Shown: positions 2,961 to 29,741 of the stretch, one piece after another | How positions within the stretch are numbered: position 1 is the first letter of the stretch | Layout of the letters: every line of letters begins with the position of its first letter | Virus record (IMG/VR): IMGVR_UViG_3300028886_000034 | Coordinates: 54,081-118,080 of that record | Reading direction: 5' to 3' (one strand) | Length of the DNA stretch: 64,000 bases | DNA from: a virus | Taxonomy: Duplodnaviria > Heunggongvirae > Uroviricota > Caudoviricetes | Notes under the pieces: model-generated | Databases searched by the model: none | What the model saw: only the letters and a program-made list of their open reading frames with translations | What the model was told of the DNA's origin: nothing | Position numbers and translations under genes: made by a program

Positions 2961-2972
2961 CCATTATTACAT

Positions 2973-4149: not shown

Positions 4150-4159
4150 GAAAGGATTG

Positions 4160-5921: not shown

Positions 5922-5926
5922 CTAAA

Positions 5927-6001
5927 CGGGTATTAGCGCAGTCTGGTTAGCGTATCTGCTTTGGGAGCAGAGGGTCGGAGGTTCAAATCCTCCATACCCG
6001 A
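5927..6001 (+). tRNA. tRNA-Pro (anticodon UGG); CCA encoded at 6002-6004
   Basis: The acceptor CGGGTAT/ATACCCG is 7 Watson-Crick bp. The D-arm is GCGC-AGTCTGGTTA-GCGT. The anticodon stem TCTGC/GCAGA closes loop TTTGGGA. The T-arm is GGAGG-TTCAAAT-CCTCC. The discriminator A is followed by CCA. Confidence 0.75.
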
Positions 6002-6118
6002 CCATTAGAATTTAAAGTAAATATTTTAGTATAAACAGAGAGTCTAAGGAGTGGAGCAAAATCCCTCTTGACTCTCTTATTTTTTTATGGTAATATTTGT
6101 ATGGGTGGTGATTGGTAT

Positions 6119-12130: not shown

Positions 12131-12416
12131 TACTACTCAAGAAGTACAAGAATTAGACTTAACTGAATTAGTAAATTATGTAAATGAATTAGGTCAAAGA
12201 GTAGAAGAGTTATCTTTAAGTAAAAATAAAGTATATGATGCCTTTGGTACTGAATATTTGGAAGATAGTGCAACTGCTTTAAAGGGAATAAAGTTTTTTA
12301 GAACCCCAACATTCTATGGGTTTGAGACTAGGTTGTCTAAGGATACCTATGAGTTCTATTTAAAGAAGTATGGAACAGTCCCAGAGATTCAAAAAGACGA
12401 TTATTATATTCTATGA
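12108..12416 (+). CDS. hypothetical protein (102 aa)
   Basis: ORF only. Confidence 0.5.
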   Translation: MVLAIMDDTTQEVQELDLTELVNYVNELGQRVEELSLSKNKVYDAFGTEYLEDSATALKGIKFFRTPTFYGFETRLSKDTYEFYLKKYGTVPEIQKDDYYIL

Positions 12417-12423
12417 GAATATA

Positions 12424-12452
12424 TTGACAAATTCTTTTTAGTCTGCTATACT
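12424..12452 (+). promoter_or_regulatory. sigma70-type promoter TTGACA-N17-TATACT
   Basis: The -35 is at 12424-12429 and the -10 at 12447-12452. It lies upstream of the helicase gene. Confidence 0.55.
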
Positions 12453-12485
12453 CTTTATATCAGATCTGATAGGAGGGGCAGTGGT

Positions 12486-13868
12486 ATGGCATTTATTAAA
12501 GGTCGTATGTATGTAGAAGACTTGACTGAGTTTGATAAAAATACACTCACTATAGCTACTGATGAAGGAGACATCAAGTGTTTTGATGAGATTGAAGTAT
12601 CCGGTAAAAAATATTATCGGATTCCACGTTACTTCAAGCAAGTCAAAGATGTTGAAGACCTCAGTACTGATGGTGAGGATATTGAAATTAATCTTAAGCC
12701 TGAGTTTAAACCTTTGAATGAGCAACAAGAGAATGCGATTAATGCTATAGTAGAAAATGTTCATGGATTAGTTTCTGCCAGAGTCGGATTTGGAAAAACT
12801 TATGTGGCTGTGAATAGTATTACTAAGATTAAGAAGCGTACTCTTATTGTAGTTCATGTATCTACAGAAGACGGCCTCATGGATCAGTGGAAAAACTCCA
12901 TATTGAGATACACTGATCTTAAAGAAGAAGATATCGGGTATCTCAATTCTAAGACAAAAGTAATTGATAAACCTATTTATCTTACTACAGTTCAAACATT
13001 ATTGTCTAGAGTTAAAAGAGATGACCAAGACTTCTTCAACATGATGTATGACGGAAACTTTGGAGTCACCTTTTATGATGAATGTCATATCACTGCATCC
13101 TCTGCTGAATTTAGTGAATCTACTAAAACAGTATTCAGTAAAAGAATGTATGGTCTGAGTGCAACACTAATTAGAAGGGATAGCTTAGCGCCAATCCTTA
13201 TTTGGAATATGGGCAAAACTATTTATGATGATGGGCAATGGTTTGTACTTCCAATTTATGCAGGTCTTTTAGATATCCCAATTAAGATGGGTGGATATGG
13301 TAGATATTTAGAGTATGGTAGTGCTTCCGCTTGGAGTGCTAAATATGCTAAGTTTCTATCTAAAAAAGAAGAGTACTTGCGGTCTATTGCGGTTATAGTA
13401 GATAAATGCTTAGAGCAGGGAAGAGAACCATTAGTTCTTTCAAGCCAAATCAATATATTGTATAGCATTGCACAATTCTCCAAATATCCTGAAGAGATTA
13501 GCATAGTCCATGGTACAGTTAAAAATAAAGATTATGATAAAAGATGTATCCTAGCTACTTTAGGAATGTTCAAAGTAGGTATGGATGTTCCAAGACTTAA
13601 TACTTTAATTTTTGCTACTCCATTGACTGCTAAGAATGGTCTTATTCAGGCTATTGGCAGAGTTGCAAGAGTTTACAATAAAGAACCTAATAAGAAAGTT
13701 ATGCTTATCGATATTGTGAATTCTTCTTATCAAAAAACAGTTGATATGAGAAAGATACGACAAAAGTATTATGGTGAAATTAATGACCATAGTATTGATG
13801 GGTGTATGCAAGTTCAATTGAACTGTATTGATGATGTAGATAAATTGATTAAGTTTTGTAATAAATAA
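12486..13868 (+). CDS. superfamily-2 (DEAD/DEAH-like) DNA helicase (460 aa)
   Basis: A GGAGGGG Shine-Dalgarno precedes it. It carries Walker A GFGKTYVA, the DECH box FYDECHIT and motif VI QAIGRVAR. Confidence 0.75.
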   Translation: MAFIKGRMYVEDLTEFDKNTLTIATDEGDIKCFDEIEVSGKKYYRIPRYFKQVKDVEDLSTDGEDIEINLKPEFKPLNEQQENAINAIVENVHGLVSARVGFGKTYVAVNSITKIKKRTLIVVHVSTEDGLMDQWKNSILRYTDLKEEDIGYLNSKTKVIDKPIYLTTVQTLLSRVKRDDQDFFNMMYDGNFGVTFYDECHITASSAEFSESTKTVFSKRMYGLSATLIRRDSLAPILIWNMGKTIYDDGQWFVLPIYAGLLDIPIKMGGYGRYLEYGSASAWSAKYAKFLSKKEEYLRSIAVIVDKCLEQGREPLVLSSQINILYSIAQFSKYPEEISIVHGTVKNKDYDKRCILATLGMFKVGMDVPRLNTLIFATPLTAKNGLIQAIGRVARVYNKEPNKKVMLIDIVNSSYQKTVDMRKIRQKYYGEINDHSIDGCMQVQLNCIDDVDKLIKFCNK

Positions 13869-13888
13869 TCCAAGGGAGGAAATCTAAG

Positions 13889-16468
13889 ATGGCTTCACCA
13901 CTAACTACATATATAAGATGGTTAGCTACTGAAGGAAATGTGCCATTTCCAGAGGAATGTAAGTCTCTTAAGATTTCCTCTATTTTAAGTTTAGCTGAAG
14001 AAGATTTTGAAACATCTATTGTATTGAATCAGCTTTTCAATAATCCTTATGCGTATAAGTATTCTATTGAAGATATTGCTAAAGTACATAAGAAGTATAA
14101 CACTATTTATAAGTTTAATTATATTCCTGTTAAACCCGTGTTTCCCAAAATTGAAGAAAAACCTAAAAAGAAAGAAACTGATGTAGTTATTAATAAAAAG
14201 AGTAAATATAAATTGTATAGCTCTAAAGAGAAAGAAGATTCTAAGCCAACTGATGGGTATTCTAAGCCTATGCTGTTTAACTTCTATTCAGACTATGTGA
14301 ATAAGGAATTTGCATATGTTATTAGAGTTGGTGATAAAAGATATATTACTCAGACTGATGATATGGTTATGATGTATACCGGTAAAGATGATTATTTAGA
14401 TGTTCATGATATTGCAGGATTAAAAGGTGAACTGGTACATTATGGTAAAAGAAAATACATTATTGAACAAATTCAGTCAGAATCTTCTTATAAAGCTATT
14501 TATAATGTAGATTTTAATTTGGCTATTCATAAGAATTATCTTTGGAAAAAAGAAAACAAAGATAATCTTGGTCATTATAAACTTAGAGTAAATTATGTTG
14601 ATATTGAGTTGTATCAAGAAGGATATGGTATTATTGACTTTGCTGATATTAAGAAGTCAGCTAGAGTTATTCCCGTTAACTTGATTACTTTGTATGATAA
14701 TTATACTGACAAATATTATACTTTGGTCTATAATTTAAACAAAGCTAAAATTAATACTGAACAAATTAAGGAATATCTTGATTACAAAGATGAGTGTATT
14801 TTCAATGTAGAAATCTTTGATAAAGAAAGTGATATGTTCCTTAAGTTCTTCAGTTTATTGAAAGAATTTGATCCAGATCTAGTATCTGGGTGGAATAGTG
14901 ATGAATTTGATTTACCTTATATTAAGTATAGAGCAGAATTTTTAGGAATTGAACATCCTAAACTGGCTCATAATAAAACTTTTGAAATTGAATATAAAAC
15001 AGTTATGAATAAACATGAAGAGGAAGTTACTTATTGTATTCCTCATATTGGTTATTCTGTAGCACTTGATTATCAAAGATGCTATAAGGAAAGAACTCTT
15101 GGTAAAAAAGAGAATTATAAGCTTGGAACTATTTCTAAAATTGAGTTGGGTATTACTAAACTTGATACTGAAGATGGCATGGATAAAATCTTTAGGGAAG
15201 AACCTGAAAGGTTTATTGCATACAATATTAACGACGTTCATCTTGTAAGAAAATTGGATGAAAAGTTGAAGTATATTGACCTTAATTTTAGTATAGTCCA
15301 GTTGGCTAATATCTCATGGGATAGTATTTATACTACTCTACATATTTGTGATGGGATTCTTTATGAGTATCTTATGGATAGAGATAAAGTAGCCAAAATT
15401 GTTAAAGCTGGAATTGAGAAGAAAAAGTTTGCGGGTGCTTATGTTAGAGAACCAATTAGCGGTGTACATGATTGGTTGGGTGATTTGGATCTTACTTCTC
15501 TTTATCCATACATTATGGCAAGATATAACATTAGTGCAGATACCTATGTAGGAAAAGTTGATACAGATACTGCTAGACAATATATCTTTAATAAAGAAGA
15601 ATTTGTTAATTCCAATACAGATGTAAGTTTGTATTTGAAAGTTCAAGGTATTGAGAGATTGTATAAATTGTCTGCTAAAAGTTTTCATGAAAGAATGCTT
15701 AAGAATGGGTATATTATTACCCAGATTGGCACTATCTTTAAGAAGCATGAAGATAAGCAGTCAGTTCTTTATGATATTGTAGATATGCTCATTAAAAAGA
15801 GAAAAGAGTATAAAGATCTTATGAAGGATAATATTGGTAAAGACCAAATGCTAGTTGACAGATATGATACTATGCAGAAAACAGTTAAGATCATTACTAA
15901 TTCTCTTTATGGTGGTCAGTCCAATATTAGATTCAGATTGTATGATTATGAGGTTGCCAGAAGTATTACTTCTACTGGTAGAGAAATTGCTAAAATCGCC
16001 GCAGTAGTTGCTAATAATTGCATTAATCAAATGATTCAAAATAAATCTAATAAATTTGACCATGTAGATATTCCTTTTGATTGGGATTACCAATCAGAAC
16101 AAGCTCTACCAAATGTAATTTATGGAGATTCAGTTACTGGAGATTCTTTAATCAGAACTGGTAAAGGTAATATAACTATTAAAGAACTTTGGGATATGTG
16201 TGCTTCGGATAATAAAGTGTGGCATTATCTCGGAAAAAATTATATTCAGAATCCTAATAAATGCGTACTTGGATATGATGACAGACTTTATTTCCCAAGG
16301 TATCTGATGAAGCATAAAACTAATAAGAAACTGTATAAGATTACTACTGAATCTGGAAAAACAGTCACTGTAACTGAAGATCATAGTTTGGTAGTAATGA
16401 GAAATAATGTTAAAACTATAATTAAACCAACAGAATTAGTTGTAACAGACCAACTAATCACCTTATAA
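13889..16468 (+). CDS. family-B DNA polymerase, N-terminal gene (palm motifs A, B and first half of C) fused to an N-terminal split-intein fragment (about 112 aa)
   Basis: Pol B motif A is DLDLTSLYPYIM and motif B is KIITNSLYGG. The motif C tripeptide YGD sits at 16121-16129. It is followed directly by an intein block A (SVTGDSLIRTG...IKEL) and block B (VTVTEDHSLVV), then a stop. Confidence 0.9.
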   Translation: MASPLTTYIRWLATEGNVPFPEECKSLKISSILSLAEEDFETSIVLNQLFNNPYAYKYSIEDIAKVHKKYNTIYKFNYIPVKPVFPKIEEKPKKKETDVVINKKSKYKLYSSKEKEDSKPTDGYSKPMLFNFYSDYVNKEFAYVIRVGDKRYITQTDDMVMMYTGKDDYLDVHDIAGLKGELVHYGKRKYIIEQIQSESSYKAIYNVDFNLAIHKNYLWKKENKDNLGHYKLRVNYVDIELYQEGYGIIDFADIKKSARVIPVNLITLYDNYTDKYYTLVYNLNKAKINTEQIKEYLDYKDECIFNVEIFDKESDMFLKFFSLLKEFDPDLVSGWNSDEFDLPYIKYRAEFLGIEHPKLAHNKTFEIEYKTVMNKHEEEVTYCIPHIGYSVALDYQRCYKERTLGKKENYKLGTISKIELGITKLDTEDGMDKIFREEPERFIAYNINDVHLVRKLDEKLKYIDLNFSIVQLANISWDSIYTTLHICDGILYEYLMDRDKVAKIVKAGIEKKKFAGAYVREPISGVHDWLGDLDLTSLYPYIMARYNISADTYVGKVDTDTARQYIFNKEEFVNSNTDVSLYLKVQGIERLYKLSAKSFHERMLKNGYIITQIGTIFKKHEDKQSVLYDIVDMLIKKRKEYKDLMKDNIGKDQMLVDRYDTMQKTVKIITNSLYGGQSNIRFRLYDYEVARSITSTGREIAKIAAVVANNCINQMIQNKSNKFDHVDIPFDWDYQSEQALPNVIYGDSVTGDSLIRTGKGNITIKELWDMCASDNKVWHYLGKNYIQNPNKCVLGYDDRLYFPRYLMKHKTNKKLYKITTESGKTVTVTEDHSLVVMRNNVKTIIKPTELVVTDQLITL

Positions 16469-16487
16469 GGAAAGGAGAATGATTATT

Positions 16488-17018
16488 ATGAGTGATAATT
16501 TAGTAACTTTTGAAAACCTACAGAGATACCATAATCAATTGGAGACAAAGATTACTCAGGAACTTAATGAGAAAGTGTCTGCTAGTCAGTTTAGAAATCA
16601 TACACATGAATTGGCTAATTTAACTGTTAGTAATGATGCCAGACCTACTACCTTAGCAGATATTAATAGACTTGCTGGCTTTAGAATGTGTTCTATAGAT
16701 GAGAACGCTATGGGTTCTATCCAGTTGAATACTAACAATTATGATATGTTTTATTTAGTATTAGCTGGTTCGGTTACAATATCTATTTTGGATGTGCCTA
16801 CAGATGCATCAATTACTAATAACAGAAGTACTTTAGCAAGGCATATCAAAGTGATTATTAAGAATCCTTCTAAAGGGATTACTTGGCCTGATTCAGTTGT
16901 TTGGATGAATGGTATTGAGCCAGGTACTTCTGGTAATAATAGTGTTGATATCGTGGACATGTTTACTCCAAATGGTGAAGTTTGGTTTGCCAATACTTTA
17001 AAGAGTTGGACTTTATAA
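16488..17018 (+). CDS. hypothetical protein (176 aa)
   Basis: AAAGGAG lies 10 nt before the ATG at 16488. It is the first gene of the cargo between the two polymerase halves. Confidence 0.55.
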   Translation: MSDNLVTFENLQRYHNQLETKITQELNEKVSASQFRNHTHELANLTVSNDARPTTLADINRLAGFRMCSIDENAMGSIQLNTNNYDMFYLVLAGSVTISILDVPTDASITNNRSTLARHIKVIIKNPSKGITWPDSVVWMNGIEPGTSGNNSVDIVDMFTPNGEVWFANTLKSWTL

Positions 17019-17048
17019 AAATAAACTATAATAGAAAGGAAGATCTAA

Positions 17049-17384
17049 TTGGCTAATTTGAAAAAATATACCAGAGCTGAAGCTTTGGAAATTTGCAGAA
17101 GAATGGGTTTGGCTGAAGCTCCGCTTAGTAATGATAGTGTTTTGATTGGAACTAATGATAAAGGACATATTTACAAGTTTCCAATTAAAACAAAAGAGGA
17201 TTTTGAAGCAGAGGCTGCTAGTAAGCAGACTAAGACTGAAGAGGTCAAAGAACAACCTGCTGAAAAGCCTGTTGAAAAACCTGTTGAAAAACCTGTTGTT
17301 GAAGAAGTTAAGGAAGAGGTTACTCCTCCTGCTCCAGTTAAGAGAAAAAGAGGTAGACCTCCTAAGAAAAAGAAAGCTGAGTGA
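17049..17384 (+). CDS. small DNA-binding-like protein with PVEK repeats and C-terminal AT-hook (111 aa)
   Basis: It carries the tandem repeat KPVEKPVEKPV and the motif KRKRGRPPKKKK, whose GRP core is typical of an AT-hook. Confidence 0.55.
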   Translation: MANLKKYTRAEALEICRRMGLAEAPLSNDSVLIGTNDKGHIYKFPIKTKEDFEAEAASKQTKTEEVKEQPAEKPVEKPVEKPVVEEVKEEVTPPAPVKRKRGRPPKKKKAE

Positions 17385-17389
17385 TTTTG

Positions 17390-18007
17390 ATGAACTCAGT
17401 GTCAAAAAATATAATGGAGCTTATGAAAGTAATAGCTACTAATCAGATGAAATTGGCTAAAAAAGTTGATCTGATGAATAAAAGGTTTAAACAGTTTTTA
17501 GCTGAAGCTACTACTACATCTCCATTAGATTTTAATACACTTAGTGTTAAGGATGAACCAGTAGAAGATTTCTCATCATTTAGTATTGAGGAGGAGTCAC
17601 CTAAGCCAGTAGAAAAACTTACTTCTGGTGTCAGAGCTATTACTTCTAAGAATAGTAATCCTTTCGATCCTACCTGGACATCTCAAAAAGATGCTATTAA
17701 AAAAGAAGAAGAAAAACTTCCAAAGGGAATCTCTAGAACTAAATCTAGTGAAGAAATGTTTCCTGAGGTAGTAGGTATTGACGAACAAGTTAAACAATTG
17801 GAAGCTGAAATGGCTGCCTTAGATAGACAAGCTCCTAAGAAGCCTAAGATGCCTAAAAAGCCATTACCTACTATGGAAGAATTAGCAATGAAAATGAAAT
17901 CAGCACCAGAACCATTAGCAGCTCCTGTAACAAAGGCTAAAAGAAAAAAAGCAACCACTAAAAAAGAAGATGCTAATGAAAATAAACAAATCTCTGAGGT
18001 CTCTTGA
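17390..18007 (+). CDS. Lys/Glu-rich hypothetical protein (206 aa)
   Basis: The ATG at 17390 is in frame with the track ORF that starts at GTG 17381. Confidence 0.55.
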   Translation: MNSVSKNIMELMKVIATNQMKLAKKVDLMNKRFKQFLAEATTTSPLDFNTLSVKDEPVEDFSSFSIEEESPKPVEKLTSGVRAITSKNSNPFDPTWTSQKDAIKKEEEKLPKGISRTKSSEEMFPEVVGIDEQVKQLEAEMAALDRQAPKKPKMPKKPLPTMEELAMKMKSAPEPLAAPVTKAKRKKATTKKEDANENKQISEVS

Positions 18008-18022
18008 TCTCAGAGATTTTTT
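17988..18022 (+). terminator. rho-independent terminator
   Basis: An 11-bp stem AAATCTCTGAG/CTCAGAGATTT is followed by a T6 run. It overlaps the stop codon at 18005-18007. Confidence 0.7.
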
Positions 18023-18025
18023 ATA

Positions 18026-18054
18026 TTGACATGGCTTTGATTTTCTGATATACT
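18026..18054 (+). promoter_or_regulatory. sigma70-type promoter TTGACA-N17-TATACT
   Basis: The -35 is at 18026-18031 and the -10 at 18049-18054. It directly follows the terminator and precedes the 18087 gene. Confidence 0.55.
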
Positions 18055-18086
18055 CCTTATATAAAATTGAAAGGAGCAATGATTAA

Positions 18087-18467
18087 ATGTCTGAAACAAA
18101 AGTAGTTACTGGTGCAGGTCATTTTGATGTTATGTATTTTGGAATGGACAGCAGAATTGCTGAGGATATCTATAAACCATATTCTGAATTTGGAGTAAAA
18201 GCACATTATGAAGCTTTGAAAGAAGCTATTCAGAAACTTCCTAGCGATAAAATTCCATCATATATTATTGTAGTTGATAGAGCTACTCTTAAGCCTAAGG
18301 TATTTGTTAATCAAAAAGAAGTTAGACTTAGACCTGGTGAACTTGAACAGAAAATGGAAAAATATAAGAAATACTTTAAAGATAAAACTTATGATGATGC
18401 AGTTAGAGTTATTAAATCAGAAAATACTTCTAACTTTTATACAGAACGACCCCTTACAGAACGATGA
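18087..18467 (+). CDS. hypothetical protein (126 aa)
   Basis: A GAAAGGAG Shine-Dalgarno precedes it. Confidence 0.6.
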   Translation: MSETKVVTGAGHFDVMYFGMDSRIAEDIYKPYSEFGVKAHYEALKEAIQKLPSDKIPSYIIVVDRATLKPKVFVNQKEVRLRPGELEQKMEKYKKYFKDKTYDDAVRVIKSENTSNFYTERPLTER

Positions 18468-18630
18468 CACAATTACTATTTGATTTTATGCCATGTAAGA
18501 CTGAGAAAGAGCTGTTGATTATCCAATCTATTTGGAATAAGCTGTGTGAATATGATAAGGTTCATTTAGATGATGATACTTGGTTTAGAAAGAATTGGGT
18601 AAATGAGGATATTAGAAGGAGATACTTATA

Positions 18631-18966
18631 TTGATAACCAGAGATGACGTTATTGATGAATGGGTATATTGTAATTATGATTCAGATAATGAATCTTCTA
18701 TAACTACTAGAGATCATCTCCCAAAAGAATTGATACAAGATATTGTGGATTATGCTAATAGATTTCTTGAGAATCCTAAAAATCTTGATCAAACTGAACT
18801 GGATAATTTTTTTAAATTATCTGATCAACGTAAAAAAGAAGTTAGTATCTATAAAGCTTTTGAAGAATGTATAGCTGCATATATACATGATTTGGGATTA
18901 ATTCTGGATTCTGCTTATGACAATATGTCTATCATTTTAAAAGGCAGGGAATGTGAATGCAAGTAA
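18631..18966 (+). CDS. hypothetical protein (111 aa), probable TTG start
   Basis: This is a track ORF. AGGAG lies 13 nt upstream and there is no in-frame ATG near the 5' end. A 48-aa ORF (18488-18634) could also be coding. Confidence 0.4.
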   Translation: MITRDDVIDEWVYCNYDSDNESSITTRDHLPKELIQDIVDYANRFLENPKNLDQTELDNFFKLSDQRKKEVSIYKAFEECIAAYIHDLGLILDSAYDNMSIILKGRECECK

Positions 18967-19637
18967 CACAAGGTAATGTATTGTCACACTATAGAAAATT
19001 TAATCAGATTGCCCAGGTAACCTCTACTAAACTCCAAGGACCAGTTATTAGAGCTATGACTGCTAAAGGAAATGAATATCTTCAGAATCCAGAAACACTT
19101 CCAAATATGCCTGAAGATAAAAAGTACTTACCTAAGCAAATTAAAGAGATTTGTATTCTTAGAGCTATTCAGGAAAATGTTCCTAAAGATCCTACTCTTA
19201 GAAAAAGACTTGAAGCTAGAATTCAGTATATTCTAGAGAATCATACTGAAGAGCAGATTATTGAGCAGAAAAAGAAAGATGGTACTTTTAATAAACCTAT
19301 AGAACCTATTGTAGAAGGCCCTATTGATAAAGAATTTTTTATTAAAGTTTATAAAAGCCTTATTGATCCAGTTACTAAAATTAAATCTAAAAAGTTTAAT
19401 GAGAATACACTGATTAAATTTGTTAGTAGATCAAATAAATATTTCCACGAAATAACTTCTCATCAATATGATGATGAAATAATTCAAAAAGCTTGTGCAG
19501 TATTAACTGAAGTTAGTAGAGATATTAAAGATCAAAAAGCTGTTGATAGAGCTATTGACCTTTTGGAAGGTCATTATGATGATGGGATGGCTGATGTTTT
19601 TTCACAAATGAGCAGAGGTGATAATGATGATTTCTAA
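18957..19637 (+). CDS. hypothetical protein (226 aa)
   Basis: ORF only. Confidence 0.55.
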   Translation: MQVTQGNVLSHYRKFNQIAQVTSTKLQGPVIRAMTAKGNEYLQNPETLPNMPEDKKYLPKQIKEICILRAIQENVPKDPTLRKRLEARIQYILENHTEEQIIEQKKKDGTFNKPIEPIVEGPIDKEFFIKVYKSLIDPVTKIKSKKFNENTLIKFVSRSNKYFHEITSHQYDDEIIQKACAVLTEVSRDIKDQKAVDRAIDLLEGHYDDGMADVFSQMSRGDNDDF

Positions 19638-20049
19638 AAAAGATGTTCTTAATGAATATGCTAAGTTTGATGATAATGCACTTCAAAAACATACAGATCT
19701 TAATAAGAAAACTGTAGAAAGTATTGCTGAACTGGCTACTAAATTATATGAATCTGATATTGGAAAAGATTTTGAAGAAGATGTTTGTATTGATTGTATG
19801 AATGATTCACAAAGAAAACAATATTATATCCTAGAATCAATTGTAAGACATTTTAATGATGATGACCCATATTTGTGCTCTTTTATTGAAGATAAACAAG
19901 AACGCATTAAAGATGAAGTTTATTTTAGATCAGATAAGTTTTTGCTAGAAACTGATGAATTTGATGATAGTTATGGTGATTACCTAGGTAATGACTTTAA
20001 ATATGATATCAGAAGGGATGATGACGATTATGAATGTAACTTTGATTAG
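19618..20049 (+). CDS. acidic hypothetical protein (143 aa)
   Basis: An AGAGGTG Shine-Dalgarno precedes it. Confidence 0.5.
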   Translation: MIMMISKKDVLNEYAKFDDNALQKHTDLNKKTVESIAELATKLYESDIGKDFEEDVCIDCMNDSQRKQYYILESIVRHFNDDDPYLCSFIEDKQERIKDEVYFRSDKFLLETDEFDDSYGDYLGNDFKYDIRRDDDDYECNFD

Positions 20050-20701
20050 TAATACTGAGGATCCTGAATTTGTAATTACTTTAGCTGCTGCCACATGTTA
20101 TTCAGATTTGACTCTTGACAAATTGAAAGAGAAGTGTTTAAATAAAGAGTATCAAGACAAGATGGTAAAAATGCTTCTGGAAAATGGTCATGAATCTCCA
20201 CTTGAACATGCTAATTTTACCTTTTTTATTGAAGGTATTAGTAGAAGTGTTAGCCATCAGCTTGTTCGTCATAGGATTGCTTCTTATTCTCAGAGAAGTC
20301 AAAGATATACTACGATGCGACCTGAAGAGTTTACTATCCCAGAATCAATTAAAAATAATCCTCATGCACAGGCTTTGTTTGAACAGCATCTTAAGGATAC
20401 ATTTGATTTGTATAATGCATATATTGAAGATGGAATTCCTAAAGAAGATGCTAGAGAGATTCTTCCTAATGCTACTCAGACTTCTTTGGTTATGACTATG
20501 AATCTAAGAGAGCTTAGGCACTTTATGGAATTGCGAATGTGTATGAGAGCTCAAAGTGGTATTAGAGAATTGGCTGATAGGATCTATATTATCTTCCAGA
20601 ATCAGTTTCCTTTGTTGATTATTGGTTGTGGTCCTAAGTGCTGGTTTGGAAAATGCACTGAAAAGCATAGGACTAAGGATTGCCCTAAGGAGAAAATTTA
20701 A
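20030..20701 (+). CDS. thyX: flavin-dependent thymidylate synthase ThyX
   Basis: It carries the ThyX signature RHRIASYSQRSQRY (RHR-X7-S) with the upstream context ESPLEHANFTFFIEG. The start is trimmed to the ATG at 20030. Confidence 0.8.
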   Translation: MNVTLISNTEDPEFVITLAAATCYSDLTLDKLKEKCLNKEYQDKMVKMLLENGHESPLEHANFTFFIEGISRSVSHQLVRHRIASYSQRSQRYTTMRPEEFTIPESIKNNPHAQALFEQHLKDTFDLYNAYIEDGIPKEDAREILPNATQTSLVMTMNLRELRHFMELRMCMRAQSGIRELADRIYIIFQNQFPLLIIGCGPKCWFGKCTEKHRTKDCPKEKI

Positions 20702-20753
20702 TAATTAGATATATTATAAACTAGAGTTTATAAATGAAAAGAGGGTATATGCT

Positions 20754-21863
20754 GTGGCTCAGTTAGAATATTGTTTGATAGACGGTAGCATTAAGAATAT
20801 TTCTGAAGTAGTGTCTGGGTTGCATAATTATATCTGCCCTATATGCGGGGAGCCTTTAGTAGCTAAAAAAGGTAATATTGTTGGTCATCATTTTTCACAT
20901 TTACCGAATAGTAAATGTCCAGCTTCAGTTTATGTTCATGGAGAGACTAATTTACATTTAGGCATGAAAAAGATTATTATGGAAACAGGCCTATGTAGGA
21001 TGCCTGAATTAGATATTGATTGGAATGGTAATATTATAAATCCTAATACGCTTAGTATGGGCACATCATATATTAGGATTAAAGAATCAAATTTTTATAA
21101 ATTTAATAAGGGTTATCTTGAAAAAAATTTAAATTGTGCTAATGGGAAATATATTAGACCCGATTTGACATGCTATGATGTTAGTTATGAGGAAATGTTT
21201 GGATTTAATAGCTCTCCATGTAGCGTGTATCTTGAAGTAACAGTAACCCATGGAGTAGATGATGTAAAACTAGATTTAATTAAATCTATAGATACTAATA
21301 ATTTTTATGTTGTAGAGTATGACTTATCTAAAGTAAATAGAGAATCTACATATGACGAATTAAAACAGGCATACTTAAGCGGCAGTATTCCATGCAATTG
21401 GATTCATAGAAGTGGTGAGAGCGACCTAGTTTGTGATAGATCTTATGAATACGCTTTTCGAGTTACAAACGGAGTTAAATGGTATGTAGATAGGTTTTAT
21501 GACAATCTAACTGATGAGGGATTAGATGCTTTAAAAGAGACTGACATTATAGAATATATGGAACAAAAGAAGTTTAAGAATATATTAGAAAATAAAAATT
21601 TTAATGGATTAGATCTAACAAGACAGTGGACATTTTTTAGAAACGAATTTCCAAGGTCGATTGTTACATCAAACGTTAATTTTTGCCCACAATTTCAGGA
21701 CTACCATATAAGGAAAAAGGCACCAGTGATGATTCAGTGCTTATCGTGTAAGCACTGTAAGAGAGCAACTTATTTTAATAGTAATAGCTATCCTAAATTT
21801 ATTATCTTATGTGAAGATAAGACAGCTCGTAATGGATATAAGGTTTTTAATAAAGCCTCTTGA
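20754..21863 (+). CDS. CoiA-like zinc-finger/nuclease family protein (369 aa), GTG start
   Basis: The N-terminal signature YICPICGEPLVAKKGNIVGHHFSHLPNSKC matches the competence CoiA family pattern CPxCx...KxG...HFxH...C. AGAGGG lies 9 nt before the GTG at 20754. Confidence 0.5.
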   Translation: MAQLEYCLIDGSIKNISEVVSGLHNYICPICGEPLVAKKGNIVGHHFSHLPNSKCPASVYVHGETNLHLGMKKIIMETGLCRMPELDIDWNGNIINPNTLSMGTSYIRIKESNFYKFNKGYLEKNLNCANGKYIRPDLTCYDVSYEEMFGFNSSPCSVYLEVTVTHGVDDVKLDLIKSIDTNNFYVVEYDLSKVNRESTYDELKQAYLSGSIPCNWIHRSGESDLVCDRSYEYAFRVTNGVKWYVDRFYDNLTDEGLDALKETDIIEYMEQKKFKNILENKNFNGLDLTRQWTFFRNEFPRSIVTSNVNFCPQFQDYHIRKKAPVMIQCLSCKHCKRATYFNSNSYPKFIILCEDKTARNGYKVFNKAS

Positions 21864-21925
21864 TAAATGTTTTATATAGTATAGTTATGTTATAACAAAA
21901 GACAATTGAGGGGGAAACCAAGGCA

Positions 21926-23410
21926 ATGCAACTTACTGCTAGTTTTAACTTTTATAGAAGACCTGGAAATGAAGAAGTATATGATTGGCTTGTAGAAGCA
22001 TGTACTGTTGCTAAGAATTTGTATAATCAGACACTGTACTATGCTTATGAGTTTAAAGAAGCTTATGACCCGGTTAGAGAACAATATAAAAAAGAAACTG
22101 GTAAGTCTTTTCCTTGGTTTCCAGACGAATACGTTGGTTTTGAAAAACCTGTCGATGATTTTTTTAAAGTAATGAGTTTGAGGAGATATGCCAGTGAACA
22201 AGATGAGAACGGTGAGTATTATACTAAAAATCTTGAGGGTAAAAGTAATTGGGAACTACTTAAAAATCTTGTAGGTAGAGATGCAACTACAGAGGTAATT
22301 AGAACATTACTATCTAAAAATTTAAAATCATATGGAAGATCCCTTGGGGATTGGAGTAGGCACCCGGAAAAATATAAAGGAATGCCAAGAAAGCCCGGTT
22401 TTTATAAAAAAGGAGATCTGTGCCCATTATACTTTTCTGGTACTTCTATTAAAATTAACTCAAAAACTAGAAGTCTTGTGTTTCCTAAGCCGAGGGGAAC
22501 GGATGGATATAATAAAAGCATTTATATCCCACTTCAAAAATTGCCACATAATTCGGAGTATGTAAAAGGAAAAAGAATTGACCAAGTTAGGATAATTCCT
22601 AAAAAAGGATATTTTAAGATTGAAATAATTTATACGTATAATGAATCGGTTCCTAAACTTGATAATAAACGATATCTTAGTATTGATTTGGGTATTAGAA
22701 ATTTTTGTACTATAATTACTAGTGATGATAAACTTAATCCAGTTATCCTTGATGGTAATGCTTTGAAATCTAAAATTAGATTTTATCATTTAATGGTAGA
22801 TAAACTTAAACATAAGATTGAAGTTATTACTGATGAAAATGGGAAGAAAAGACCTAAGCAGTATACTACTAAGAGAATTGAAGCAATGACAAAGAATCAT
22901 ATTAATCGTATAAATTATATCGTTGATGCATATACTAAGTATATTGTTAGATATTGCCTCCATTATAATATTTGTAGAGTTATTTGCGGTTGGAATAAAG
23001 ATATGAAGCAGAAGATCAATACTGGGCATAAAAATAATCAAATTATTGTTAACTTTCCTTTTAAAAAACTACTTGACAAACTCGAATATAAGTGTAAAAT
23101 GAGGGGCATAAGCTTCGAGATTGTTGAAGAGTCTTATACTAGTAAAACAGATCATCTTAGAAATGCTCCCTTGGCTACTAAAGAAGACCCTGAAACTAGA
23201 GATGAGGCTAACTTTGGTAAAAGAATTCACAGAGGATTGTTTTCTTCTGGGGTTGGAAAGTTGGTGAATGCTGATGTAAATGGCGCTATGGGTATTATGA
23301 GAAAAGCAATTCCAGATTTTAGTTGGGTTGGATACCATCCATTTCATCCAGTTAGGATGAGAGTTAAAGACGTAATTGAAGGTCTAAAGTATTCTAAATT
23401 CCCTAAATAA
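21926..23410 (+). CDS. TnpB/Cas12-like RuvC-fold protein (494 aa), candidate compact type V CRISPR effector
   Basis: The RuvC-I motif is LSIDLGIRNF (D254). A TnpB-like helix NHINRINYIVDAYTKYIV follows. The YTSK motif is EIVEESYTSKTDH and RuvC-III is NADVNGAMGI (D450). The gene lies directly upstream of a CRISPR array. No CxxC zinc finger is present, and the usual IxxEDLN position reads VICGWNKDM. Confidence 0.7.
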   Translation: MQLTASFNFYRRPGNEEVYDWLVEACTVAKNLYNQTLYYAYEFKEAYDPVREQYKKETGKSFPWFPDEYVGFEKPVDDFFKVMSLRRYASEQDENGEYYTKNLEGKSNWELLKNLVGRDATTEVIRTLLSKNLKSYGRSLGDWSRHPEKYKGMPRKPGFYKKGDLCPLYFSGTSIKINSKTRSLVFPKPRGTDGYNKSIYIPLQKLPHNSEYVKGKRIDQVRIIPKKGYFKIEIIYTYNESVPKLDNKRYLSIDLGIRNFCTIITSDDKLNPVILDGNALKSKIRFYHLMVDKLKHKIEVITDENGKKRPKQYTTKRIEAMTKNHINRINYIVDAYTKYIVRYCLHYNICRVICGWNKDMKQKINTGHKNNQIIVNFPFKKLLDKLEYKCKMRGISFEIVEESYTSKTDHLRNAPLATKEDPETRDEANFGKRIHRGLFSSGVGKLVNADVNGAMGIMRKAIPDFSWVGYHPFHPVRMRVKDVIEGLKYSKFPK

Positions 23411-23520
23411 ACAGGGGATGTATTTGGGTAAGTTTGGCAAACCCATTTAAATAAGATCATCAGAATCAGCGATGTGAATTTAAATAAAGTTAATGAAAAT
23501 TAACTGCCTCCGGATTTATT

Positions 23521-23542
23521 CGGATACGATACTTTTTATTTG
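23521..23542 (+). ncRNA. candidate tracrRNA anti-repeat
   Basis: The segment CGGATACGATACTTTTTATTTG can pair with the repeat 3' half CAAATAAGGGTATCGTAT. ATACGATA pairs with TATCGTAT (8 bp) and ATTTG pairs with CAAAT (5 bp), linked by A-U and G-U pairs. It lies between the effector gene and the array on the same strand. Confidence 0.4.
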
Positions 23543-23621
23543 TTTTTACGTATGGAAAATGCTGTTTTTTACAACTGAATATTGAATAAACTCAGTATTT
23601 GTAAGAGTTTGCGTATAGGAT

Positions 23622-24247
23622 ACTATACGGTACTTACAAATAAGGGTATCGTATAACAAAAGAAGATACAACAGACGATAAAAAAGAACTATACGGTACT
23701 TACAAATAAGGGTATCGTATAACATGATATTAAAGAGTATGCTGATTTGGGTGACTATACGGTACTTACAAATAAGGGTATCGTATAACTCTAACTATTA
23801 CTGCTATTACCTCATCATCACTATACGGTACTTACAAATAAGGGTATCGTATAACGCTATCTTCTTCCTGCATGGTCCATCACATACTATACGGTACTTA
23901 CAAATAAGGGTATCGTATAACAGTGATGTAAAAATGAAATTTAATGATGTTACTATACGGTACTTACAAATAAGGGTATCGTATAACAGACATTTTAAAC
24001 ATGAGTATTTTAGCACTATACGACACTTACAAATAAAGAGTATCGTATAACTTGACGTGCTCTTTCAGTTCTGGTATACTCACTATACGTTACTTATAAA
24101 TAAGGGTATCGTATAACTATGAGCTTTTGGAGTAGTGGAATTGTTTTACCATGTGGACTTACAAATAAGAATATCGTATAATTGATACCTGATTAGTATT
24201 GTATTGCCCATACTATACAGGACCTACAAATAAGAATATTGTGTAAT
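23622..24247 (+). CRISPR. CRISPR array with 10 repeats (35-36 nt; consensus A-CTATACGGTACTTACAAATAAGGGTATCGTATAAC) and 9 unique spacers of about 28-31 nt
   Basis: Repeats begin at 23623, 23689, 23755, 23821, 23887, 23953, 24016, 24083, about 24149 and 24213. The first six are identical and the last four are progressively degenerate. The AT-rich leader is therefore at the 5' side (23410-23620). Confidence 0.85.
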
Positions 24248-24249
24248 TA

Positions 24250-24278
24250 TTGACAAAGTATGCCGAGTCTGATAGAAT
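24250..24278 (+). promoter_or_regulatory. sigma70-type promoter TTGACA-N17-TAGAAT
   Basis: The -35 is at 24250-24255 and the -10 at 24273-24278. It abuts the last degenerate repeat and precedes the intein-C/polymerase gene. Confidence 0.5.
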
Positions 24279-24301
24279 CATTATATGGGTGGTGAAGGAA
24301 A

Positions 24302-25297
24302 ATGAAGATAGAGAGTGTTAAATCAATAGAAGTGATTACTCCAGAAGAACCTATTGATGTATATGATATTGAAATGCCAGATGATGATCATTGTTTTTTT
24401 GCAAATGACATATTAGTTCATAATACAGATTCAATTTTTACTAAATATGGCGATGCATTGAAAGCAATTTATGGAAAAGATTATGATGAAATTTCTGACA
24501 AGGAAAAGATAGATAAAGTTATTGAATTGAATGAATCTGTAGCACAGTATATTAATAATGTAATGATTCATGAACTTCTTAATATGCATAATACATCTCC
24601 TACAGAATCTTCGGCTAAAAAGTTTAACTTTAATTTTAAACAGGAACTTGTTATTAGAAGAGCTTTGTTTCTGGAAATCAAAAAGAAGTATGCTATTTGG
24701 TTAGTTTCCAAAGAAGGAAAGCCTTTGGATAAAATCAGTATTAGTGGTATAGAAGTTGTAAGATCTGATTATCCTCAATTTAGCAGAGATATGTTAAATG
24801 ATTTTATTGAGCATATCCTTAAGAAAGGAATCAGTAAAGAAGAGCTTACCACTAAGATTGATGATTATAGAGGTAGATATGTTGAGCAGTTAAAAACAGG
24901 TACAGTTTATTGTGCTATTCCAAGTTCTTGGAATAAAGAAAACTATGCCCAAGATAGACTGCCAAGATCAGTTAAATCTATGTTGGTATATAATGCAATT
25001 TATGGAAGTACCTTTAGAGTAATGGATAGAGGCTATAGATTTGACTTGGAAGAAATTGATATAGGTCAATTTGATTCAGATACACAAAGACGCTTGACAG
25101 ATTTAGTTCGATCTGGTACAATGGGTAAAGAAGGTAAGTTAGATTGTATTACTATTCCTACTAATGGTACATTAGATTTAACTAAGTTTAGAATTAATTA
25201 TAATAAAATGCAAGAATTTGCAGTTGATGATCGTATTTCTAATTTTTGTGATATCTTTGGGATTAAAGTTGATGATCCTAATGATATAGGTTGGTAG
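24302..25297 (+). CDS. C-terminal split-intein fragment (about 41 aa) fused to the C-terminal part of family-B DNA polymerase (rest of motif C plus thumb)
   Basis: The intein blocks F/G end in VYDIEMPDDDHCFFANDILVHN. The C-extein follows immediately and starts TDSIFTKYGD, which completes YGD|TDS. The KKRY-type motif EIKKKYAIW lies downstream. An AAGGA Shine-Dalgarno precedes the gene. Confidence 0.85.
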   Translation: MKIESVKSIEVITPEEPIDVYDIEMPDDDHCFFANDILVHNTDSIFTKYGDALKAIYGKDYDEISDKEKIDKVIELNESVAQYINNVMIHELLNMHNTSPTESSAKKFNFNFKQELVIRRALFLEIKKKYAIWLVSKEGKPLDKISISGIEVVRSDYPQFSRDMLNDFIEHILKKGISKEELTTKIDDYRGRYVEQLKTGTVYCAIPSSWNKENYAQDRLPRSVKSMLVYNAIYGSTFRVMDRGYRFDLEEIDIGQFDSDTQRRLTDLVRSGTMGKEGKLDCITIPTNGTLDLTKFRINYNKMQEFAVDDRISNFCDIFGIKVDDPNDIGW

Positions 25298-25487
25298 TAA
25301 ATAATCTTATAAAAAGGAGCGAAGTAGATTCAATTAGGTATGGGAAAAGAACTTAAGAAGTTTAAGCTGGATGAGGATTCTTGGGATTACACCAAAAAGA
25401 AAAAGGATAAGGGTTATCACAAGAATACGTCAAAACGAGCAGACCCTAATAAGGGCAAAAATAACAGACAAAGAAGGAGCAGAAACT

Positions 25488-26054
25488 ATGATTGAGTATC
25501 GTATTAATAAGGACAAAGGTGTAGTGTGTGCATTTATGACAAATTGCAATCGTGATTTTGTTAATTTTGTTTATAATTGCACAGCAGTTCATAGGAATGG
25601 TGATTGTAATTTTGTTGCTGACCTTATCGATAAGAAACTCCTTGAAGAGTTTCCAGATAAGTTTTTTGCAGTAGCAAAGTGTAATCCAGAAACTAATGAT
25701 ACTTGGAATGAAGAGTTTGGTAAAGAAGTAGCTAAAGCAAAACTTCTTGCTAAGTATTATAGAGTTAGGGCTAGATTTATTGGAGAAATCTTCTCAGACA
25801 TTAGTATGATGATGAATGATTTTAGAACTGGAATTCTTAGCAGACTTAATGAAGGTTTCTCAGTAGCTACAGAGAAGATGACTATCAATAATGAAATTGT
25901 TTATGCGGTGAATATGGGTTATGATCCAACTGACCCCGACAGTGATATTTCTCAGTATCTTGATGCTCAGGATTGGAATGATCTTGAAGCTGCTGATATT
26001 GAAATTGATGAAGACAATGGAACTGAAGAAGCTCCTTCTGAAGACAATAATTAA
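25488..26054 (+). CDS. hypothetical protein with acidic C-terminus (188 aa)
   Basis: AAGGAG lies 8 nt before the ATG at 25488. The track ORF is trimmed to this start. Confidence 0.5.
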   Translation: MIEYRINKDKGVVCAFMTNCNRDFVNFVYNCTAVHRNGDCNFVADLIDKKLLEEFPDKFFAVAKCNPETNDTWNEEFGKEVAKAKLLAKYYRVRARFIGEIFSDISMMMNDFRTGILSRLNEGFSVATEKMTINNEIVYAVNMGYDPTDPDSDISQYLDAQDWNDLEAADIEIDEDNGTEEAPSEDNN

Positions 26055-26077
26055 TAATTGAAAGGAATTGATGTATA

Positions 26078-26515
26078 ATGGCAGCTCAGTTTAATCAGGT
26101 TATTCTTTGTGGAAATCTTGGTGCAGATCCTTTTTATAAGGTTTATGAATCAGGTCGTTATTTCACCTCTTTTAGGCTCTTTGTGAATAGAAGCTATTAC
26201 ACTAAGGGTGAAAGTGGAGAGCTTGAACGTAAGGAAGCTACTGATGCACCTCTTGTTCAGTGCTGGGGCAAGAATGCTGAAAGAATGGCTAAATACCTTA
26301 AAAAGGGTAGAAATGTTATGATTATTGGCCATATTGAAACTCGAATGTGGGAAGATGAAAATAACCCTGAAAAGAAGAACACTATTACAGTGGTTATGGC
26401 AGATGATTTCAAATTCCTGGATTCCCCTAAGCGTGATAATCCTAGCACATCATATACTTCTGAGGATAAGCTGGAAGCACCTGTTGGTGATGTGATTAAG
26501 GATGTTGACCTTTAA
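26078..26515 (+). CDS. ssb: single-stranded DNA-binding protein
   Basis: The N-terminal OB-fold signature is MAAQFNQVILCGNLGADPFYK, followed by an acidic/aromatic C-terminal tail. Confidence 0.75.
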   Translation: MAAQFNQVILCGNLGADPFYKVYESGRYFTSFRLFVNRSYYTKGESGELERKEATDAPLVQCWGKNAERMAKYLKKGRNVMIIGHIETRMWEDENNPEKKNTITVVMADDFKFLDSPKRDNPSTSYTSEDKLEAPVGDVIKDVDL

Positions 26516-26518
26516 GGC

Positions 26519-26547
26519 TTGACATAAAACATTCGAAGTGGTATACT
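26519..26547 (+). promoter_or_regulatory. promoter-like TTGACA-N17-TATACT overlapping the ssb terminator
   Basis: The -35 is at 26519-26524 and the -10 at 26542-26547. The -10 lies inside the 5' arm of the terminator hairpin. It may fire into the helicase gene. Confidence 0.35.
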
Positions 26548-26579
26548 TCTCATATAGAGAGGTGTACCACTTCTTTTTT
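26535..26579 (+). terminator. rho-independent terminator
   Basis: A 12-bp stem GAAGTGGTATAC/GTGTACCACTTC with one mismatch is followed by a T6 run. Confidence 0.7.
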
Positions 26580-26600
26580 ATATAAGGAGGGTTAGTTTAA

Positions 26601-28755: not shown

Positions 28756-28817
28756 TTCAAGAGTAAGCAAAAAGAAACCCCTTCCAGTCAGGGTCTCTTT
28801 TCGCCTCTACGGAGACG

Positions 28818-29039
28818 CTACCAGCGCTCCCATCTGTGGCTCTTGGGATTGAACCACAGAAGGACGCGACCGGTTTCGTCCTCGATCCATCGGCCCTGCA
28901 ATTTTCTGCTGGGCTTCTGAGCGAGAACGACGCGCACCTCCAGCTCCGCTTCGGCGGGGTTGGATGTGCGAACGTCCCAGTAGAAGCTTTCGTCTTCACG
29001 GTCGATGACCGCGATGACGATAAACTTCACTTCGTTCAT
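28818..29039 (-). CDS. small hypothetical protein (73 aa) inside GC-rich island 1
   Basis: A strong AAGGAGGTGAAAGA-ATG context is seen on the minus strand. The codon usage is GC-rich and unlike the rest of the phage. Confidence 0.4.
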   Translation of the reverse strand: MNEVKFIVIAVIDREDESFYWDVRTSNPAEAELEVRVVLAQKPSRKLQGRWIEDETGRVLLWFNPKSHRWERW

Positions 29040-29325
29040 TCTTTCACCTCCTTGGTGAATAATCCAGACTACACCCTTTCCTCCTTTCAGTCTGGACCCC
29101 TAAGATTAAATAGTTTGGAAAGTCGCCCTTAGGGTGCTGTGAATATCTTTCCAACGCTGCTTTGCCCATGCTGGTAGGCACACTTGCAGCTAGTGCTTTC
29201 GGTCCCTGAGTTACGTGTTACGTTGGACCTAGACTCTCTGCTTTAGGTAAGAGAGACTTTCACCTTACTCAACTTTACGGCTTGAGTTTACCGTAATACG
29301 CTGCCCCTAAAACTGAAACAGCGCT

Positions 29326-29354
29326 AATATAATATACATATAAAAATATGTTAA
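29326..29354 (-). promoter_or_regulatory. minus-strand promoter TTAACA-N17-TATATT at the edge of GC island 1
   Basis: On the minus strand the -35 TTAACA is at 29354-29349 and the -10 TATATT at 29331-29326. The predicted start site coincides with the first GC-rich base. Confidence 0.4.
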
Positions 29355-29356
29355 TA

Positions 29357-29393
29357 AAACTAGGGGACTATCAATAGTCCCCTAGTTTTATTT
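29357..29393. terminator. bidirectional hairpin terminator
   Basis: A 16-bp stem AAAACTAGGGGACTAT/ATAGTCCCCTAGTTTT has a CAAT loop. It overlaps the stop of the minus-strand gene 29388-29741. Confidence 0.6.
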
Positions 29394-29741
29394 AGGATAG
29401 CAGCAAAGGCCGTTACATCCAATGTGCTTCCCAGCGCTATCTCTGATTGCTTCTCCAGTAATGAATACATCTTTTCTTCTTTCTGGAAGAAGCTCCCATA
29501 TTGCAGTTCCTGCGATTGCTGATACAACAAACACTTTGCCTTCTTCTGAAGAAGGAAGATTCTTTACTTCCCCAAAGTATTTGGCACTAACAGTAATTTC
29601 TCCTTCAGATGTTTCGATAGTTTTTCTTGTTTCAGTTTTTTCCACCAATCTTACAGGAGGCAGATTAGATGGTGGAATACTAATCATGCCGTTACTAGTT
29701 TTGATGTTGATTTCGTGAGGGGTGAGATTAACAATTGTCAT
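29388..29741 (-). CDS. hypothetical protein (117 aa)
   Basis: The ORF is on the minus strand. Confidence 0.5.
   Translation of the reverse strand: MTIVNLTPHEINIKTSNGMISIPPSNLPPVRLVEKTETRKTIETSEGEITVSAKYFGEVKNLPSSEEGKVFVVSAIAGTAIWELLPERRKDVFITGEAIRDSAGKHIGCNGLCCYPK

Follow-up and report, generated by a model that had tools for sequence, protein, structure and literature searches.

A split intein fractures the DNA polymerase gene of a jumbo phage, and its gap has probably become an old gene locus with a hypervariable 3' end

How does the gene for a replicative DNA polymerase come to enclose 7.8 kb of other genes? The question is raised by a stretch of 64,000 nucleotides, here called the window, from a virus of the Caudoviricetes (IMG/VR record IMGVR_UViG_3300028886_000034, positions 54,081 to 118,080). 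In this window the gene for a family-B DNA polymerase (PolB) is divided by a split intein, and the gap between the two halves holds 11 plus-strand open reading frames (ORFs) and a clustered regularly interspaced short palindromic repeats (CRISPR) array; the twelve genes counted in a first-pass annotation of the sequence fit only if the array is included. That annotation proposed that the whole block is a mobile or accessory island, which may have arisen by insertion or expansion at the intein endonuclease locus. We consider it probable, instead, that the polymerase gene (polB) was fractured long ago and has been inherited vertically in that state, and that the gap at the endonuclease position became a permanent gene locus with a stable core and a hypervariable 3' end.

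A polymerase gene divided at motif C

The two halves of the polymerase gene lie on the plus strand and are separated within motif C, YGD|TDS, by a split intein of the Ser1/Thr+1 type. The N-half ORF (13889-16468, 859 amino acids) comprises an N-extein of 747 residues (13889-16129), which contains the exonuclease domain and motifs A and B and ends in ..VIYGD, and an N-intein of 112 residues plus stop codon (16130-16468); Pfam recognizes DNA_pol_B_exo1 and DNA_pol_B ahead of the intein N-terminal region. The C-half ORF (24302-25297, 331 amino acids) opens with a 41-residue C-intein (24302-24424), whose blocks F and G end in ..VYDIEMPDDDHCFFANDILVHN|T, and continues as a 290-residue C-extein (24425-25297) that begins with TDSIF.., contributes the second half of motif C and the thumb, and is matched by Pfam DNA_pol_B. 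Both intein parts exceed their NCBIfam cutoffs (TIGR01445, score 39.5 against 24.5, for the N-part; TIGR01443, 22.4 against 15.6, for the C-part), and the fused intein matches the solved structures of a DNA-polymerase intein (9hth, E 1.5e-15), gp41-1, PolB16 and NrdJ-1. The junctions read ..NVIYGD / SVTGDSLIRT.. on the N side and ..DILVHN / TDSIFTKYGD on the C side, and are independent of cysteine. All of the expected catalytic features are present, namely Ser1, block A, block B with VTEDH (TxxH), the NX motif MKH, the terminal HN and Thr+1; the K/R-H "NX" motif has been defined for cysteine-less Ser1 inteins (PMC10189870). Joining the exteins restores YGDTDS, the PolB motif C, in a protein of 1037 amino acids, in which the N-half covers positions 39-232 of the Pfam DNA_pol_B profile and the C-half positions 231-354. 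Judged by these motifs, protein trans-splicing most likely unites the halves into a 1037-residue PolB. They would be made separately, the C-half from a conserved promoter of its own, and the cysteine-less split intein would then splice them into a polymerase with an intact YGDTDS.

The fracture is shared by a whole clade. Relatives were compared on contigs numbered with L and through homologous proteins numbered with P. Among PolB homologs, 21 of 21 clusters between 100% and 38% identity have the N-intein directly after YG(D) at the same split site, and Ser1, TxxH, the terminal HN and Thr+1 are kept in nearly all of these lineages. Relatives with an unsplit gene and no intein are confined to identities of 31% or less. 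Searched for DNA nearly identical to 12400-26600, cultured phages gave no match, and the nearest cultured PolBs are only 25-30% identical. Wherever a relative's contig spans the region, the C-half is found 3.7-7.8 kb further downstream, in the same orientation and ahead of SSB and DnaB genes, and the gaps of the clade hold 8-13 genes. More than 15 independent contigs, drawn from various samples, show the identical layout, which rules out an assembly artefact. An N-terminal uracil-DNA-glycosylase domain is fused to PolB in P0134, P0138 and P0141, as well as in the unsplit outgroups P0142 and P0143; the fusion is found both at a split locus (L013, 10001-13267) and at an unsplit one (L016, 10001-13276).

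The first-pass annotation placed the cargo at the position of a homing endonuclease, and this part of it stands. The gap falls at the canonical split point of the intein, between an N-part of 112 residues and a C-part of 41 residues and, since a single endonuclease gene occupies the corresponding gap in Pseudomonas phages PA5oct/MIJ3 and Tenacibaculum phage PTm1, the genes in the window sit where a homing endonuclease would normally be found. Remnants of an endonuclease had been suggested at 16470-16490 and at 24280-24302. None can exist there, as the former is a 10-nt intergenic gap and the latter holds the ribosome-binding site of the C-half gene (polC) just 3' of its promoter.

Core and variable parts of the gap

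The stable core of the gap runs from the N-half to thyX, on the plus strand throughout. Immediately downstream of the N-half lies c01 (16479-17018; 176-179 amino acids, with a likely start at 16488), which has weak tail-fibre-like PHROG matches and is found at the same position in relatives down to L014. It is followed by c02 (17049-17384), which encodes an AT-hook protein (KRKRGRPPKKKK; RGRPPKKKK) with homologs in relatives, by c03 (17381-18007; 208 amino acids, rich in Lys, Glu and Pro), by c04-c08 (18087-20049; 126, 56, 111, 226 and 143 amino acids), which are without known function, and by thyX (19991-20701), which encodes a flavin-dependent thymidylate synthase (Pfam Thy1, 3e-67). A terminator hairpin with a 14-bp stem and T-run (17988-18019) precedes a promoter, TTGACA-17-TATACT (18026-18054), and a further promoter, TTGACA-17-TAGAAT (24250-24278), precedes polC. 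The terminator/promoter architecture is repeated in L001, L011, L017 and L018 with different stem sequences, and a TTGACA...TAtAAT box lies at equal distance from the polC ATG in seven of eight relatives, L014 being the exception. As a class, promoter-like matches show no enrichment in the gap region; we treat the terminator and promoters as real because their positions are kept in relatives while the surrounding sequence drifts. The signals at 17988, 18026 and 24250 reported by the first-pass annotation are thus present and conserved in position, and its account of an intein-split polymerase enclosing an AT-hook protein, thyX, a CoiA-like gene, a TnpB-like gene and an array was borne out by ORF, Pfam/NCBIfam and repeat analysis.

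The core has diverged together with the polymerase. The sole gene common to every examined gap is thyX. Homology searches with tblastn found c01-c04 and thyX in L001, L002, L008, L011, L012, L017 and L018 (PolB identity ~68-99% where measured), and c01, c02, c04 and thyX in the gap of L014, so that c04 is kept down to 49% PolB identity; c07 and c08 are present in some relatives and absent from others. At 41% PolB identity (L013) only thyX is common, and the gap consists of 13 genes on both strands. The identity of thyX (88, 66, 55 and 44%) parallels that of PolB (~80, 68, 49 and 41%). The guanine-cytosine (GC) content of the gap equals that of the flanks, no direct or inverted repeats were found flanking the cargo or the TnpB module, and neither integrase nor transposase (TnpA) is encoded in the gap. 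From synteny, the co-divergence of thyX and PolB, the matching GC content and the lack of repeats, integrase and transposase, we infer that the core of the cargo is old and vertically inherited and not an island. It would consist of c01-c04, sometimes c05-c08 and always thyX, with a terminator and promoter of its own.

Polymorphism is confined to the 3' end. DNA alignment of relatives limits the accessory part of the gap to 20706-24266, and it is for these last 3.6 kb that the proposal of mobile or accessory DNA holds. Every relative can be aligned as far as the thyX stop (20701-20705); the alignment resumes at 21909, the TnpB ribosome-binding site, in TnpB-carrying relatives, and at 24267-24320, the polC promoter region, in the TnpB-less L001, L017 and L018. 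We propose that this end is built of two independently exchangeable modules, of which the one directly after thyX would hold free-standing nuclease genes or, in some relatives, unrelated small genes. This slot (20706-21908) contains a CoiA-like gene in the window, L024-L026, L021 and L019, and in L019 that gene stands directly before polC with no TnpB. In L008-L010 and L012 the slot contains an HNH_3/NUMOD4 gene and two small genes, in L001, L011, L017 and L018 other unrelated ORFs, and in L002 five minus-strand ORFs, while in L014 it is empty. On either side of the slot swap, the DNA of L008 is 95-96% identical to that of the window. In L012 even thyX is broken, at 2870-4645 (corresponding to window 20541/20546), by an intein that is complete with a LAGLIDADG endonuclease, so that the gap of one intein encloses another. 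The slot swaps and the thyX intein together are the mark of site-specific nuclease genes that have repeatedly invaded the DNA beside thyX and polC.

The CoiA-like protein (20754-21863, plus strand) is the candidate for such a nuclease in the window. Among 5.8 billion proteins it has just two homolog clusters, both located in the slot after thyX, and a profile search recovered ~1900 remote CoiA-like relatives that have the first ~220 residues in common. An AlphaFold model built from three sequences reached a predicted local distance difference test (pLDDT) value of 35, which rose to 86.7 after remote homologs were added. PDB searches with the sequence and with its profile returned nothing useful. 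In this confident model the protein has a restriction-endonuclease-like fold, and it probably combines a CoiA_N zinc ribbon with a PD-(D/E)xK nuclease; D137, E161 and K172 are invariant in the family alignment. It may represent a new kind of free-standing homing endonuclease. The CoiA-like gene runs into a promoter at its 3' end, where its stop codon shares bases with a TTGAYA -35 box (21855-21925; 6895-6950 in L019). In L019 this promoter of the CoiA cassette stands before polC and in the window before the TnpB gene, and slot modules appear to bring their own read-out promoters.

The TnpB-family nuclease and the CRISPR array

The second module occupies 2.4 kb (21909-24266) and is composed of a TnpB-family nuclease gene, an anti-repeat resembling that of a trans-activating CRISPR RNA (tracr) and the array. 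The nuclease gene (21926-23410, plus strand) encodes 494 amino acids and was recognized as a TnpB-family RNA-guided nuclease with a guided_TnpB score of 112.9 against a cutoff of 100. Its product keeps RuvC-I D254 and RuvC-III D450, has Gly at the position of the canonical RuvC-II Glu and carries an invariant EESYTS after it. This arrangement matches the TnpB groups with a rearranged RuvC-II site (RIIr) described by Altae-Tran et al. (PMC10691335) and is common to the whole parent TnpB family; since the parent family shares the same RuvC features, we assume that the protein is active. It did not reach a named Cas12 subtype (Cas12f2, 37 bits against a cutoff of 450), and PADLOC gave weak Cas12u3/Cas12f matches (E about 1e-12 to 1e-9). 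The close homologs form a small phage-only clade (99, 85, 80, 77 and 52% identity), and the next are TnpBs of ~410 amino acids at ~36% identity, relative to which the 494-residue protein has insertions, mainly N-terminal. Homologs P0001, P0002 and P0004 occur at one syntenic site in five of five contig sets examined, a count that leaves out the contexts of P0003 and P0005, and neither TnpA nor terminal repeats, by which an IS200/IS605 element would be recognized, were found.

Downstream of the nuclease gene lies a tracr/omega-like scaffold region (23411-23560, plus strand) with conserved hairpins and an inverted, degenerate copy of the array repeat (anti-repeat at about 23522-23556). The scaffold is identical in the L008-L010 contigs, and an alignment block that includes the TnpB gene and scaffold is ~76-80% identical in L011 and L012. 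In the latter two, repeat and anti-repeat have both changed and pairing is kept by compensatory change. This covariation, in three distinct sequences only, is suggestive of a tracr-like RNA. Rfam has no family for the tracr/array region. The array (23622-24247, plus strand) contains ten 36-nt hairpin repeats and nine spacers of 27-30 nt; the leader-proximal repeats are perfect and the last four, at the trailer end, are degenerate. The spacers of L025 are those of the window. In L024, whose PolN is identical to that of the window, spacers 1-5 are missing, and in L008-L010, with a 99% identical TnpB and an identical leader, the spacer set is entirely different. Judged by these comparisons, the array has changed its spacers recently. 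Neither cas1 nor cas2 was found in the gap or in 20 other large ORFs of the window, which was the scope of this search in a genome of ~288 kb.

The spacers were searched for targets in several collections. Local BLAST of 15 spacers against the window and the fetched loci of relatives gave only chance-level matches of 12-16 nt. One of these, a 14-nt match of the first L008 spacer to c01, was dismissed as a target because the sequence diverges immediately outside the match. Exact 22-mer scans found no match for spacers 2, 3, 4 and 7 in viral contigs or for spacers 4 and 7 in bacterial and archaeal genomes, and BLAST of all spacers against cultured phages gave insignificant matches only, for the A-rich spacer 1. 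Further arrays were sought with a repeat scan of the JGI metagenome collection and with TnpB-based locus searches in viral and metagenome collections, and none was found. Several spacers have 43-50% GC, whereas these phages have about 30%. The first spacer of L011 (5895-5924) and window spacer 7 (24052-24081) have 14 of 15 nt in common at an offset of 8 nt, and both read ..PELKE.. on the reverse strand; this overlap suggests the same conserved target gene. We consider it most likely that the module works as a very small type V-like CRISPR system aimed at other genetic elements.

Origin of the gap and comparison with known systems

Several accounts of how the gap arose, and of what keeps it, have to be set against each other. 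Insertion of the whole 7.8-kb block as a mobile or accessory island would explain its location at the endonuclease position, the presence of mobile-type genes (the nuclease and the TnpB-family protein) at the block end and a gap length that ranges from 3.7 to 7.8 kb across relatives. Yet the core remains syntenic and co-diverging down to 49% PolB identity, and thyX down to 41%, the internal regulatory signals are conserved, and only 20706-24266 is polymorphic. The features by which genomic islands and integrative elements are recognized, namely an integrase, TnpA, flanking direct or inverted repeats, deviant composition and patchy occurrence as a whole unit, are missing here, and we regard an origin of this kind as very unlikely for the block as a whole. 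A local rearrangement could instead have swapped the 3' kilobase of polB with a downstream block that already held thyX, with no need for foreign DNA. The first-pass annotation had reasoned that unsplit relatives with the same genes elsewhere in the same order would imply simple rearrangement, and the unsplit outgroup L016 (31% identity) goes part of the way, with thyX 1.4 kb downstream of the intact gene in the same order relative to dnaB. Its order is pol, three genes, thyX, two genes, a 466-aa gene, a 41-aa ORF and dnaB, so that the thyX block is "after pol" in L016 and "inside pol" in the split relatives; the 466-aa gene has homologs 3' of polC, at a distance of one small ORF in L013 and of two genes in PA5oct. 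The distance of the L016 thyX (32-35%) is like that of its PolB (27-31%), consistent with common descent. L016, however, is a single outgroup contig at 31% identity with thyX alone in common, and thyX is often hit by mobile elements, as with the L012 intein, and may have come in separately. Stepwise growth agrees just as well with the homologous inteins that have a single endonuclease gene in the gap, and the swap is in our view a possible origin but a doubtful one.

Two further accounts concern function. The intein halves could be relics, the polymerase fragments working as a non-covalent complex without splicing. An unspliced split PolB is known from T4-like phages, among them Aeromonas phage 44RR, whose gp43 is split but lacks an intein (cited in PMC2677866), and in two distant relatives (N-halves P0139 and P0140, 38% identity) TEDES replaces TEDHS, so that the block B histidine is lost while the gene is still split. 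Retention of Ser1, TxxH, HN and Thr+1 in nearly all 21 lineages, the exact restoration of YGDTDS by the exteins and the splicing in vitro of the related inteins PolB16 and gp41-1 (PMC10189870) make this reading highly improbable. It may also be asked whether the TnpB-CRISPR module has replaced the homing endonuclease. Its guides would cut competing or module-less co-infecting relatives and repair would copy the locus, by homing or exclusion, so that the split polymerase locus and its cargo would be favoured in mixed infections; the TnpB would then have been caught soon after becoming a CRISPR effector, with spacers acquired without cas1/cas2 of its own. The native role of TnpB is RNA-guided cleavage that promotes retention of its element (PMC10705468), which accords with this idea. 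So do the presence and absence of the module among close relatives with precise boundaries, its place directly upstream of the C-half, where fractured genes carry the endonuclease, and spacers against the same conserved motif in two lineages. On the other hand, 0 of the 15 spacers match empty-site junctions or the rest of the fetched loci (20-kb stretches for longer contigs) of relatives with or without the module, the entirely different spacer sets of near-identical phages are typical of defence or competition arrays, and the GC content of several spacers departs from that of these phages. We consider RNA-guided homing unlikely; if true, it would make the module an RNA-guided successor to intein homing, a TnpB-derived CRISPR system in the selfish-element niche of a fractured essential gene.

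An old, vertically inherited fracture whose gap became a permanent locus remains the account that we favour, and stepwise growth at the endonuclease site fits the precedents of PA5oct and PTm1. The core would have been fixed beside the polymerase, the nuclease slot after thyX and the TnpB module would turn over at the 3' end, and the module would act as a miniature CRISPR system against other elements. The locus would then illustrate a long-term fate of a fractured gene in which the halves have neither drifted apart nor re-fused, and in which the gap is a protected locus within an essential gene where ordinary genes such as thyX become fixed and selfish or defence modules turn over. Beyond the locus, the analysis offers as leads a family of split inteins that are cysteine-less by nature and have numerous diverged members, and a small phage-only effector of the TnpB/Cas12-like kind (494 residues), which has an apparent tracr-like RNA and stands near the transition from TnpB to CRISPR.

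Some observations elsewhere in the window were made in passing. A cluster of tRNA genes (93-6004) includes one with a CUA anticodon at 1827-1920 (amber suppressor; ARAGORN label Pyl), along with six other ARAGORN calls (Ser, Gln, Thr, Leu, Ile and Pro); in part of the jumbo phage, TAG may be read through or recoded. On the minus strand, 47712-48945 has 52% GC in a genome of ~30% GC; its products are an AAA_28 protein and one with a CYTH domain, and it has the look of foreign DNA acquired recently. A segment behind the DnaB-region genes, at about 28757-29400, is GC-richer, and Arg/Pro-rich ORFs overlap on its two strands. Its best Rfam score does not convince (CsrB, 19 bits; cutoff 71), and the segment may represent either a degraded gene or a structured RNA.

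Split inteins in phage PolB, fractured genes, TnpB-derived CRISPR effectors and phage-borne arrays are all known already. In the literature and databases searched, we did not find a gap that serves as a long-term multi-gene locus with a fixed thyX or a CoiA-type nuclease in the endonuclease slot, and the literature searched held no precedent for a phage-only TnpB/CRISPR module inside a fractured essential gene. The nearest effectors are the TnpB-derived type V proteins (Cas12f, V-U; PMC10691335), with which the window protein shares a TnpB-family RuvC protein directly upstream of an array, insertions, the lack of adaptation genes and the RIIr-like Gly; it differs from named Cas12 proteins in falling below the Cas12f2 cutoff and in belonging to a phage-only clade of its own. 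The arrangement as a whole is that of the fractured genes of Dassa et al. 2009 (PMC2677866) in having one locus, the same orientation, the original order, the canonical endonuclease position and a C-half with its own expression signals. A predicted nuclease gene lies directly upstream of the C-half in L019 and upstream of the TnpB module in the window. Fractured genes have an endonuclease as the sole gap gene, whereas in the window the CoiA-like candidate is accompanied by ten other genes. HNH_3/NUMOD4 genes take its slot in relatives, and the genes in the gaps of the clade, 8-13 in 3.7-7.8 kb, are mostly non-endonuclease and stably inherited. In the model of Dassa et al., loss of the endonuclease lets the halves drift apart (PMC2677866), and a gap with housekeeping or defence genes is not described there.

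The closest relatives of the intein are the split PolB inteins of PA5oct/MIJ3 and PTm1, to which its N-part is 35-37% identical; it is more distantly like the inteins of Salicola phage SCTP-2, Campylobacter phage CP21, Aeromonas phage Aes508 and the Lak phages. The paper on MIJ3 describes the same split arrangement, and a contiguous mini-intein in SCTP-2 (PMC6892783). PA5oct/MIJ3 and PTm1 resemble the window in having a motif-C intein of a family-B phage polymerase that is split into a long N-part and a short C-part. They differ in splice site, PA5oct splicing at YGDTD|S and PTm1 at YADTD|S, whereas the window clade splices two residues upstream at YGD|TDS (16127-16132 and 24422-24430), although both sites restore the same motif C. 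They differ also in the gap, which is multi-gene in the window and contains in PA5oct a single gene annotated "Hef-like homing endonuclease" (Hef-like/HNH) and in PTm1 a single "VSR endonuclease" gene (Vsr-like). Homologous PolB inteins can thus be arranged in a series, from the contiguous mini-intein of SCTP-2, through a split with one endonuclease gene in PA5oct/MIJ3 and PTm1, to a split with multi-gene cargo in the window clade. Outside phages, the split dnaE of cyanobacteria and the split polB of Nanoarchaeum equitans likewise yield a replicative polymerase from a natural split intein and an ancient, fixed split, but their halves lie far apart, whereas those of the window clade have stayed at a common locus together with conserved cargo.

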